Shown here: positions 12,490 through 18,182 of the stretch, in pieces
Position numbering within the stretch: position 1 is the first letter of the stretch
Layout: the number at the start of each line of letters is the position of its first letter
Source: an uncultured virus (IMG/VR IMGVR_UViG_3300030406_000618)
Lineage: Duplodnaviria; Heunggongvirae; Uroviricota; Caudoviricetes
Strand: one strand, 5' to 3'
IMG/VR virus record: IMGVR_UViG_3300030406_000618
Length of the DNA stretch: 20,000 nt
Made by a program: the position numbers and the translations under genes
The notes under the pieces: generated by a model
Databases searched by the model: none
Told to the model about the DNA's origin: nothing
Seen by the model: only the letters and a program-made list of their open reading frames with translations

Positions 12490-12529
12490 GCTAGTGGGGT
12501 TTATACCCCATTAGCAAAAATTTTTTTTT
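12490..12529 (+). terminator. Probable terminator ending the first early unit
   Basis: GCTAGTGGGGT-TTAT-ACCCCATTAGC (11 bp, one G-U) followed by A5 then T9; the T-run is displaced from the stem. Confidence 0.55.
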
Positions 12530-12549: not shown

Positions 12550-12578
12550 TTGAATATACCGAGCACTCGTGTTACAAT
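12550..12578 (+). promoter_or_regulatory. Sigma70 promoter with extended -10
   Basis: TTGAAT, 17-nt spacer ending TGT, TACAAT; AT-rich tract upstream; SD and ATG 12596 follow. Confidence 0.65.
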
Positions 12579-13553: not shown

Positions 13554-13800
13554 TTCTATGAAAGTATTACAACTTAGATGGATTGAATCAGTACAAAAGA
13601 TGTATGATGCTCTTGATAAAGATGTAGTAAAGTATGGTAAATATAAATTTGATGAGGTTGTATTAGTACATAACGAAATGATAACACAACTCTGTTCTAC
13701 TATAGATAATATAGAAGAAGAATTAATTAAGACAACTCATACGATTAAGTATTTGAATGAAGCAGCAGTAAAACTAAAGGAGGCTATCAAAAATGGGTAG
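13546..13800 (+). CDS. Hypothetical coiled-coil protein
   Basis: 84 aa, AGGAGG SD, overlaps both neighbours. Confidence 0.7.
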   Translation: MSDSMKVLQLRWIESVQKMYDALDKDVVKYGKYKFDEVVLVHNEMITQLCSTIDNIEEELIKTTHTIKYLNEAAVKLKEAIKNG

Positions 13801-14203
13801 ATATTACGAAGGCGATATAGAAGGTAAGTTCTGGTTTGGTGTACAATCTAGTGATGATGCAGATTTTTTTGGACAACAAGGATTTCAACCAGAGTGGCTT
13901 GAATATTTCTTTGATGAAAAAGACTTGGAAAAAATACAGAAAGGTGTAGATACTTGTCTAACAAAACTTGGTGATAAGAAAAAATTATTAGATGATTTCT
14001 TTGAAAGAGTAGAAGGTTATACAAGAGAAGAAGTATGTAAGGTATTAGATGTACCAGTACCAAAAGTAGGTATGTCAATACAAGATCATAACAAAAGTAA
14101 ATACCATTATTATTTAGAATGGTATGCACGATATGAACTAGGTAAGAAGATACTAGATCGTGTTAAATCAAATGGTTTCTGTTCGTTTAGAGCAGAAATA
14201 TAA
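13793..14203 (+). CDS. Conserved phage hypothetical protein
   Basis: 136 aa; 'MGRYYEGDIEGKFWFGVQSSDDADFFG' N-terminus; AGGAGG SD. Confidence 0.75.
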   Translation: MGRYYEGDIEGKFWFGVQSSDDADFFGQQGFQPEWLEYFFDEKDLEKIQKGVDTCLTKLGDKKKLLDDFFERVEGYTREEVCKVLDVPVPKVGMSIQDHNKSKYHYYLEWYARYELGKKILDRVKSNGFCSFRAEI

Positions 14204-14208
14204 GTTTA

Positions 14209-14585
14209 ACTGGGTGCATTGGTCTTTGTAGCAGTGAGTGAAAGAAAGCTGATAGGCTTGGTAAGACAAGTTAGCGTAAAGAGGGTGAGACCTACCTCTG
14301 CCCAGTAAAAAGTTTCCGTATGGAACTGTGTAGGAAAGACATAAGGTAGTAAGCGTAAAGCTAAAGCTGGTGGCTACACGCCTACACAGAAAGTTTCGTG
14401 ATACTGAGTAGCTCTCGGTATCGGCTGACTGAACAACTCTTTAACAGAGGGGTAAGGTACACTTGAGATGAAGTATGGGCAAATGCCTGAGGTACTCGAA
14501 GGTGGTTGTAAGTAGGCAAATGATGAATGTATATCTGTAGCTGAAAGCATGAGGGTAATAACACTAATCCCTCGCCCTTGGCGAA
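14209..14585 (+). ncRNA. Candidate large structured ncRNA (about 380 nt)
   Basis: 400-nt gap in a tightly packed operon, GC-richer than the flanks. Stems at 14209-14215/14300-14306, 14326-14334/14381-14389, 14400-14408/14414-14422, 14433-14438/14504-14509 and 14551-14555/14569-14573, with many G-U pairs and A-rich junctions. Confidence 0.65.
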
Positions 14586-14603
14586 TGTAACAAAGGAGGA
14601 AAT

Positions 14604-15407
14604 ATGTTACCACAAGAACTAATGTTTCAGGTACGTGAAGAACCTGTATATAACCAACATGGCTCAAGGCTAGATGGCTACAAGCAGTTGGTTAAAGACG
14701 AGAACAACGAACTGATTGCAGTTCACAAGAACACATACCGAGTCATATCACATGACACAGTATATGATAAAGCTAAAGATTTTCTAACAGATAACTTTAA
14801 CACCAATGGTATGACTGAGGAACACAAATGGTCTAACCATGGTGCTGTAATGGCTACTAGATTCTCTTTACCAGAGTATCAGATACCATTCAAAGATACT
14901 TCTATTGGTCTAGAAGCTGTAGTATGGAACAGCTACAATGGTATGCGTTCATTTAGATTTGATCTAGGTTTCTACCTGTGGTTATGTCTTAATGGACTCA
15001 AGAATTCGGTATGGGATATCAGTTTGAATACTGCACACAAAGGTAGTGGTGAGATTAAACTAGCATTACCTGGTGGTTATGCAGCTCTTGATGGACTACA
15101 AACTGTATATAACTACATGACTAACTGGTTAGAAACACCAGTACAAGACTATGAATTATATAGTGAAATAGATAGATTGTGCTATCAGCCAACACGTACT
15201 GACAAGAGTCATGTCAATCAACAACATAGAAATTATATTGTAGATCAGTATGAAAACAATTATGCAAAGACATATGGACCTAATAAATTCAGTGCATATC
15301 AAGCAATTACACACTGGAGTACACATTATCCTAGCGATTCCGTAAATACTCGTTATGATAGAGAAAGGAAAGTGTCTAACATGGCTTGGTTTAGCCAAGC
15401 AGCGTAG
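14604..15407 (+). CDS. DUF932 family protein
   Basis: 267 aa with 'YRVISH', 'NSYNGMRSF', 'LCLNG', 'H' and 'AYQAITHWSTH' motifs; AGGAGG SD. Confidence 0.8.
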   Translation: MLPQELMFQVREEPVYNQHGSRLDGYKQLVKDENNELIAVHKNTYRVISHDTVYDKAKDFLTDNFNTNGMTEEHKWSNHGAVMATRFSLPEYQIPFKDTSIGLEAVVWNSYNGMRSFRFDLGFYLWLCLNGLKNSVWDISLNTAHKGSGEIKLALPGGYAALDGLQTVYNYMTNWLETPVQDYELYSEIDRLCYQPTRTDKSHVNQQHRNYIVDQYENNYAKTYGPNKFSAYQAITHWSTHYPSDSVNTRYDRERKVSNMAWFSQAA

Positions 15408-18082: not shown

Positions 18083-18088
18083 TAAAGT

Positions 18089-18177
18089 TTAGTTGCTTTC
18101 ACCCAGCAGCTAATTGGGTGGTGATACTTTCTTCAAGTGTTATCTCCGCAAAATAACTACTCCTAGTATTGCCACCC
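18089..18177 (+). ncRNA. Hairpin B with anti-SD loop plus an upstream hairpin (candidate antisense sRNA)
   Basis: 13-bp stem 18116-18128/18165-18177 (2 G-U); loop TTCTTCAAGTGTTATCTCCGCAAAATAACTACTCCT; upstream stem 18089-18097/18105-18113. Confidence 0.55.
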
Positions 18178-18182
18178 TATAA

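Follow-up and report, generated by a model that had tools for sequence, protein, structure and literature searches.

A compact manA-family RNA within a modular array of intergenic RNA cassettes in a marine podovirus

What fills a gap of 400 nucleotides (nt) in an operon of otherwise small and overlapping genes? This question is raised by a 20,000-nt stretch of DNA from an uncultured virus of the Caudoviricetes (IMG/VR record IMGVR_UViG_3300030406_000618), the whole of which is referred to as the window in the following. The gap (14204-14603) lies on the + strand between an open reading frame (ORF) of 136 amino acids (aa) and the gene of a DUF932 protein. An initial annotation, made from the letters alone, had described it as one ornate RNA of about 380 nt with several domains, possibly related to the ROOL and GOLLD RNAs and possibly a partner of the DUF932 protein. 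We found that the gap is a phage-borne, structured non-coding region on the sense strand, as had been proposed. Instead of a single multi-domain RNA, however, it holds three independently occurring cassettes, here called A, B and C. Cassette C belongs to the manA RNA family, of which it is a divergent and compact form; its fold, supported by covariation, comprises 11 helices enclosed by an outer helix. A and B recur as modules without an Rfam family. We place high confidence in this modular anatomy and in the manA kinship. It is also probable, if with less assurance, that the gap is a tandem array of independently folding, exchangeable cassettes acting as RNAs, and not a leader specific for DUF932.

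The ORF-free gap itself is readily reproduced. No ORF of at least 40 aa was found on the + strand between 14204 and 14603, and the only minus-strand ORFs are 14374-14667 and 14382-14564. The G+C content of the gap is 44%, compared to 35% for the whole window, and purines make up 60% of its + strand. All 13 motif pairs named in the initial annotation were located where it had placed them. Several of these are listed together with the other features in Table 1.

Table 1. Coordinates of the cassettes, motifs and neighbouring features in the window
Feature	Position	Strand	Description
Upstream 136-aa ORF	13793..14203	+	Stop TAA 14201-14203 overlaps the first AAGTTT junction
Cassette A, 108 nt (TTT...AAAAAG)	14205..14312	+	Multi-branch fold closed by ACTGGG(T)/(G)CCCAGT
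Stem of A	14209 / 14300		ACTGGGT / GCCCAGT
Complementary 6-mers	14222 / 14335		GTCTTT / AAAGAC
Duplicated motif	14273 and 14352		AGCGTAAAG
Cassette B, 81 nt (TTTCC...CAGAAAG)	14313..14393	+	Small hairpin TTCC/GGAA, then 9-bp closing stem
Closing stem of B	14326 / 14381		CTGTGTAGG / CCTACACAG
Cassette C, 202 nt (TTTCG...AACAAAG)	14394..14595	+	Compact manA-family RNA, 11 helices
Outer helix enclosing C, 5' strand TTCGT	14395..14399	+	RNAalifold alignment pairs 13-17 with 201-205
First hairpin of C	14400 / 14414		GATACTGAG / CTCGGTATC
Rfam manA RNA (RF01745) match	14402..14581	+	Full model 1-192, 34.4 bits, E 3.3e-7
Outer helix enclosing C, 3' strand GCGAA	14581..14585	+	Partner of 14395-14399
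AAGTTT junctions	14202-14207, 14310-14315, 14391-14396	+	ORF stop/A, A/B and B/C
Shine-Dalgarno AAGGAGG of DUF932	14593..14599	+	Its AAG doubles as the 3' end of cassette C
DUF932 protein gene, 267 aa	14604..15407	+	Pfam PF06067, E 1.7e-8
Terminator-like hairpin, then promoter-like TTGAAT-17-TACAAT	12490-12515, then 12550-12578	+	Precede the array-bearing operon
Cassette D	18083..18182	+	Directly after the SSB stop, begins TAAAGTTTAG / TAAAGTTT; two strong hairpins

The kinship of C with manA is seen in several ways. Firstly, the Rfam model aligns over its full length, and the conserved manA blocks GCUGACUGAA-AA, GUAAGGU and the terminal hairpin UGAGGGUA...AAUCCCUC find their counterparts in C. 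The same sub-threshold manA match was obtained for 8 of 16 related loci, at 33.5-40.8 bits. Secondly, sixteen relatives of C were aligned (alignment A1), for which RNAalifold gave 42 pairs, 9 of them with compensatory change, and a model, R1, was built from this alignment. A pattern scan of IMG/VR followed by R1 yielded 37 matches in 81 sources and 28 more in 60 further sources, with a single copy of C in the window. R1 also retrieves canonical manA RNAs, at R1 scores of 28.7-39.3 bits; on the Rfam manA model these matches reach 122.2 (L052), 67.6 (L095), 63.5 (L080), 62.5 (L108) and 59.6 bits (L059). The Rfam manA scores of the other R1 matches form a continuum down to 28 bits. Because the R1 matches span the Rfam cut-off continuously, the compact form grades into the accepted manA RNAs, and C is a new compact variant of this known family.

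Covarying homologues were found for C as well. In alignment A2, which comprises the 41 R1 matches at E ≤1e-15 (38 distinct sequences), pairing extends to 97.7% of cells, and both sides have changed in 29 of the 42 pairs. None of 500 shuffles reached the observed values, and slid partners gave at most 13 such pairs. The outer helix is among the changing elements, with changes on both sides in all five of its pairs; variants include TTCAC/GTGAA, AAAGACCTA/TAGGTCTTT and TTTCGGA/TCCGAAA. Three hairpins that had been read from the single sequence, GATACTGAG/CTCGGTATC, GGC/GCC and GAGGG/CCCTC, all belong to C and covary among its relatives. The closure that had been suggested for a third domain, ACAACT/GGTTGT with ACTT/AAGT, fared worse: 73.2% of its cells are paired, compared to the 97.7% of the consensus fold, and it shows little covariation. 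In the covariation-backed fold a single hairpin is found at the inner junction. The fold contains many G-U pairs and is therefore specific to the + strand RNA. The Shine-Dalgarno sequence of DUF932 remains unpaired in this consensus.

Two further observations concern the details of C. Of the 16 distinct sequences of its first hairpin (window 14400-14422; A2 columns 11-48), nine have the palindrome AGCU (UAGCU) in the apical loop, on differing stems; other loops read UAAUUA or UUGCAA, and four are without a palindrome. An AGCU loop could suit a homotypic kissing loop, which we regard as a lead only. In the minimum free energy (MFE) fold of C alone, CUCUUU (14437-14442) pairs with AAGGAG (14594-14599) of the Shine-Dalgarno sequence. 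This pairing is probably due to chance, as relatives with a different P2 strand cannot form it.

The modular nature of the gap becomes clear when the DUF932 site is compared between viruses. In IMG/VR, 47 loci related to DUF932 were found; ten of these lacked enough upstream DNA (four were inspected separately), so that the site survey covers 37 loci. In 18 of them the distance from stop codon to ATG is only 9-11 nt (TATAAGGAGG...), and in three a different upstream gene abuts DUF932. Cassette C stands alone in nine loci (220-223 nt) and is accompanied by one of two other 5' cassettes in five (294-306 nt). One locus has one of those other cassettes without C (113 nt), and in another (L009:805-980) the 176 nt read as a small ORF (ATGAAAAAATTT...). 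The combination of A, B and C was met at the DUF932 site of the window only. The partnership with DUF932 that had been suggested is not supported, given the 18 loci with hardly any gap and the presence of the cassettes at other genes. The upstream 136-aa ORF is kept across the DUF932 loci; it matched no Pfam family at E up to 1. At L031:1117-1330, C with the same Shine-Dalgarno-bearing tail is followed by a small extra ORF before DUF932.

The boundaries of the cassettes follow one rule. The empty DUF932 site reads TATAAGGAGGAA(A/C)...ATG with a single AAG. The filled site reads TATAAG|TTT...ACAAAG|GAGGAAATATG, and each unit opens with TTT and closes with an A-rich tail followed by AAG. The TTT start and the A-rich tail prolong the closing stem of each cassette. 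Metagenome contig L291 gives a direct view of one such exchange. Its identity to the window is 99.5% across the 760 nt that lead up to and include A, and 98.4% across the 669 nt that begin with C. What it lacks is exactly the 81-nt unit B, which in the window lies between 8-nt direct repeats AAAGTTTC. Altogether, cassettes are gained, lost and swapped at the short conserved (A)AAGTTT junctions.

A second hot spot was found downstream of the SSB gene, where 77 loci have non-coding gaps of 3 to 588 nt (two loci with truncated SSB matches, L230 and L231, were left out of this table, and L263 has no stop codon in view). Besides C, B and A, these gaps hold another dozen or more units with closed stems; (A)AGTTT leads nearly all of the units. 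The number of cassette types, at least 15, was counted by eye, since single-linkage clustering merged nearly all pieces owing to incompletely split junctions. In L171/L290, L292 and L293, A follows the SSB stop codon directly and is itself followed directly by C. The order B and then C after SSB is seen in L163, L177-L179, L182 and L185, and in L176 C is followed by another cassette and then by B. Thus, A occurs without B (L171 and L291-L293, of which L291 concerns the DUF932 site) and B without A (L163 and L176-L187). The window has a unit of its own at this position, cassette D, with an MFE of -31.2 kcal/mol (z score -5.43; none of 200 shuffles as good).

The junction motif follows the arrays closely. 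In 54 distinct SSB-downstream arrays AAGTTT occurs 3.33 times per kb, compared to 0.82 per kb in the flanks, while its reverse complement is not enriched in the same comparison (0.45 vs 0.47 per kb). The cassettes were seen in one orientation only relative to the genes, namely on the sense strand. The same sense-strand cassettes therefore occupy at least two intergenic hot spots, and they are found in many unrelated gene contexts. As a separate observation, many SSB-downstream arrays (L232, L235, L236, L239, L249, L252, L254-L256 and L260) have at their 3' end a conserved sequence of roughly 100 nt, ATATGGTTSGGG...CCTGGAAAACC.ATTAAAT.ATTCCAGG...TTGACA...TATATA, whose TTGACA/TATATA pair is promoter-like and stands just before the next 73-aa ORF.

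In the case of A and B, no Rfam family was matched. On 20 array-bearing loci, Rfam at E 0.1 gave only manA and one chance match to a long non-coding RNA, the other cassettes being without a family. Searches with 17-mers produced five matches for A, four of which were discarded as chance, and 16 for B, of which seven were discarded likewise. True B was found at the remaining nine of these 16 loci and at 20 of 20 loci of a scan with its core; blastn and nhmmer with A and B against the early locus set gave only L163, for B. Both cassettes are near-identical (97-100%) across different contexts. The closing stems of both, as described in the initial annotation, show compensatory changes in variants. 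For A, these are T.G to C-G and ACTGGG/CCCAGT to ACGGGC/GCCCGT. The inner hairpin CATTG/CAGTG, which had been assigned to A, is not kept: the diverged variant L289, found after another ORF, has CACCG for CAGTG and keeps instead the helix CAG/CTG as CACC/GGTG. A tRNA-like fold for A was considered and ruled out by a negative ARAGORN result and overlong linkers.

In B, the closing stem surrounds a conserved core, AAGGTAGTRRGCGTAAAGC...GCTGGTGGCTAC. The core is invariant as AAGGUAGURRGCGUAAAGC...GCUGGUGGCUAC. The apical stem is variable: at one extreme it has a loop of just 3 nt, at the other an insert of ~60 nt. A second, wholly different class of 9-bp closing stem, TGTATACTG/CAGTATATA, was found in L245, L271 and L273.

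Some evidence is available at the level of transcription. The gap stretch was found in marine metagenome runs of several studies, and contigs from four RNA libraries, in which DNA carry-over is possible, contain parts of such arrays. Contig X17 runs from the upstream ORF through a 77-nt alternative cassette and C into the start of DUF932; contig X19 joins B to C; and two contigs carry a variant of A. These contigs fit a co-transcription of the array with the operon.

On this basis we propose that the array would be transcribed together with its operon and that the cassettes would function by themselves as folded RNAs. Self-association into RNA-only oligomers would be the likely activity of C, by analogy with canonical manA in vitro. 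We consider self-assembly the best functional guess because manA RNAs have been reported to assemble in vitro. The single-stranded AAG|UUU junctions would probably provide micro-homology for recombination and might act as cleavage sites that free the units. The junctions may resemble the sites preferred by RNase E. That the cassettes work as free or trans-acting RNAs is a tentative proposal, which we would put at somewhat less than even, and cleavage at the junctions is more doubtful still. A wider and rather unlikely reading is that the lineage of these abundant marine podoviruses keeps a shuffling library of at least 15 self-contained RNA cassettes at a few intergenic hot spots, with AAGUUU junctions serving both reassortment and release, and with manA units forming oligomers or cages. 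Released oligomers or cages of the manA type might then act during infection, e.g. by sequestering a host factor or a defence protein, and manA would be one bead of a diversifying RNA arsenal and not a riboswitch.

Several points weigh against the reading of the gap as an array of manA-type and other free-standing RNAs. The match of C, at 34.4 bits, is under the Rfam gathering score of 55.2. Two of the three inner-junction hairpins of the manA model are missing in C, with model positions ~77-100 deleted and the broken pairs marked, and because of this loss the published assembly behaviour of manA is not transferable to C. Alignment A2 was fitted to the model, so that the model's own pairs are favoured in the counts given above. 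The covariation of A and B comes from few variants (three sequence types of A, two closing-stem classes of B). The four RNA-library runs are assembled contigs which give no reading of ends, strand or abundance, and the junction motif could be a mere recombination scar.

Folding energies belong to the same side of the balance. The initial annotation had taken an energy better than that of shuffles as a mark of structure, and this does not apply to the whole gap (z -0.96; 15 of 100 shuffles fold as well), whose minus strand gives z -0.34 (40 of 100). Among the cassettes, A (z -1.35; 19 of 200) and C (z -0.50; 57 of 200) fold no better than shuffles, and B gives z -2.23 (5 of 200). By energy alone the finding of a structured RNA would fail; it is rescued because the comparative evidence supports the folds.

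Position provides the last of these points, and with it the alternative that survives best. In the window, as in 14 of the 26 distinct close relatives of C, the cassette ends ~20 nt before a Shine-Dalgarno sequence and start codon (in the window, 8 nt before the former and 18 nt before the ATG), and in other phages canonical manA is found behind promoter-like sequences, just upstream of ORFs. Both positions fit a cis-regulatory leader. C, perhaps with A and B, would then be a riboswitch-like 5' element that controls the translation or stability of the DUF932 message. Rfam classes manA as ‘Cis-reg’, and Weinberg et al. 2010 (PMC2864571) rated it a probable riboswitch. We nevertheless hold this explanation, a serious competitor, to be unlikely. 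The other 12 of the 26 relatives are followed by further non-coding cassettes and no ORF, and the genes downstream of C, where present, are small ORFs unrelated among themselves. Eighteen of the 37 DUF932 loci have no leader at all, and no ligand is known. A conserved expression platform was not found either: the gap contains no terminator-like site, and there is no conserved anti-Shine-Dalgarno pairing, the CUCUUU/AAGGAG pairing of the MFE fold being lost in relatives with a different P2 strand and the Shine-Dalgarno sequence being unpaired in the consensus.

A less probable alternative, to which we give only a small chance, places the function at the level of DNA. The units would be selfish or recombination elements, similar to miniature inverted-repeat transposable elements (MITE) or repetitive extragenic palindromes (REP), or mere scars, with no function as RNA. 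In the MITE/REP variant, the closing stem would be a terminal inverted repeat and AAG a 3-bp target duplication. This accounts for the AAG that flanks every unit on both sides and is single in the empty site, for the clean presence or absence of B between 8-nt direct repeats, and for the 97-100% identity of A and B across contexts, as in recent spread. The restriction to one orientation relative to the genes and the strand-specific enrichment of the junction are not accounted for. In addition, G-U pairs and compensatory changes preserve a fold of the + strand RNA, and the conserved unpaired cores of B with their variable apical stems, together with the membership of C in a structured-RNA family, indicate selection on RNA. 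No transposase or nuclease gene was linked to the arrays in the loci seen.

The single RNA of about 380 nt, in which the domains cooperate through a loop-loop contact between GTCTTT and AAAGAC, is very improbable in view of these data. The two 6-mers are indeed complementary and lie in predicted loops, and in the window all three units would be on one transcript. However, A and B occur without each other, and the order C...B is possible. Neither 6-mer varies in the DNA loci compared, so that covariation gives the contact no support. The GTCTT loop of A (14222-14226) is also complementary to AAGAC within A (14264-14268, at the loop/stem edge of the CTTG/CAAG hairpin), which is thus an alternative partner to the proposed contact between A and B.

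A minus-strand protein gene, the 97-aa ORF 14374-14667, can practically be dismissed: several relatives do have long open minus-strand frames, but minus-strand stops are rare by composition with a 60% purine + strand, every minus frame is interrupted by stops in L016 and L018, the frame is shifted by indels of 1 nt, no Pfam match was found at E up to 1, and the conservation pattern of such a protein was looked for and is absent, variable columns falling 23/28/24 on codon positions 1/2/3 without third-position excess.

The preferred reading, an array of exchangeable RNA cassettes, can be compared with several known systems. Like manA (RF01745), C aligns over the full model with its conserved blocks, is marine and phage-borne, and belongs to a group from which R1 retrieves canonical members. 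It differs by one inner-junction hairpin where the model has three, by its extra covarying outer helix, by its host (a pelagiphage-like podovirus, whereas canonical manA is found in T4-like cyanophage) and by its place inside AAGTTT cassette arrays, as canonical manA copies are without such junctions. According to the cryo-EM preprint of Ren et al. 2026 (bioRxiv 10.64898/2026.07.01.735769), manA RNAs form RNA-only assemblies of 8, 10 and 60 subunits in vitro via kissing loops, the 60-mer being a cage; this homo-oligomeric assembly is given as pentamer-based. The resemblance to multimeric ornate RNAs that had been noted initially thus stands in part, namely for manA, and falls for membership in ROOL or GOLLD. 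ROOL, GOLLD and OLE are reported as RNA-only complexes in a 2025 study (Nature 2025, PMC12286853). In contrast to these, the units described here have ~200 nt or less, and a cmscan of 14100-14700 at E up to 10 gave, besides manA, four chance-level matches, none of them to ROOL, GOLLD or a ribozyme. The ROOL and GOLLD RNAs exceed ~200 nt by far. Readings as a CRISPR repeat (RF01350, match only at E 8) or as small nucleolar RNAs (matches only at E 0.85-4.4) were rejected.

The exchange of units also has a parallel. In Arbiol et al. 2010 (PMC2839356), the PeSL of T4-type phages are short conserved intergenic motifs at module boundaries which mediate insertion, deletion and replacement among phages that are close relatives. 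Similarly, the indel of B is bounded by a repeated motif, AAAGTTTC, within flanks of 98-99.5% identity. PeSL are, however, promoter and terminator units flanking genes, whereas the units of the present array are complex non-coding RNAs which themselves contain no promoter- or terminator-like site, and the repeated motif has only 6-8 nt. Comeau et al. 2014 (PMC4122927) reportedly also deal with the PeSL cassettes of T4-type phages. The closing stems and flanking AAG would fit MITE or REP elements; against this, all cassettes seen were in sense orientation, and enrichment of the junction motif is confined to a single strand. A third comparison is offered by the cyanophage S-CREM1, in which wcaG, manA and abiF lie within ~800 nt, as given in PMC9964418. 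Here again a manA RNA is found among other small structured RNAs in an intergenic stretch of a phage, with the difference that the neighbours in S-CREM1 are known Rfam families, while those of C are without one and are separated by a common junction motif. Within our incomplete coverage of the literature, from which the supplements of the manA papers were excluded, no description of AAGTTT-delimited RNA cassette arrays was found.

The relevance of the locus lies in the history of manA, an orphan riboswitch candidate since 2010 for which the 2026 preprint reports RNA-only cages. The locus is a natural experiment, since near-identical phages differ in whether, and in what order, they have a compact manA variant and other unclassified RNA modules at defined sites before unrelated genes. 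This pattern favours free-standing RNAs over a regulator tied to one gene. The locus also supplies minimal natural manA variants for assembly studies and defined junctions for studies of processing, and it points to intergenic hot spots of phages as potential islands of accessory RNAs, analogous to those of accessory genes.

Regarding the wider setting, the ORF list and Pfam place structural genes (portal, T7-type scaffold, capsid and tail tube) on the minus strand of the window, and an operon of small overlapping genes including DUF932, a YqaJ nuclease and SSB on the + strand. By its portal protein, the closest cultured phage is the Pelagibacter phage EXVC031P (55% identity), and the source of the window is a marine podovirus related to the pelagiphages. 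In collections of cultured phages, no match was obtained for DUF932 by tblastn or for the 400-nt gap by blastn. No tRNA or tmRNA was found in the window by ARAGORN, and no Rfam match at gathering threshold over its whole length. Within the gap there is no promoter-like or terminator-like site on the + strand. The promoter-like site ahead of the operon (Table 1) has to be read against the overall count of such sites, which is not above shuffles (28 vs a mean of 31.6).

In EXVC031P no credible R1 match was found, the best being a short fragment at 11.1 bits. Among weak manA-like R1 matches on unrelated viral contigs, two lie ~70-110 nt from tRNA genes (L105:875-948 and L069:371-452; Rfam tRNA scores of 60 and 48.9 bits).

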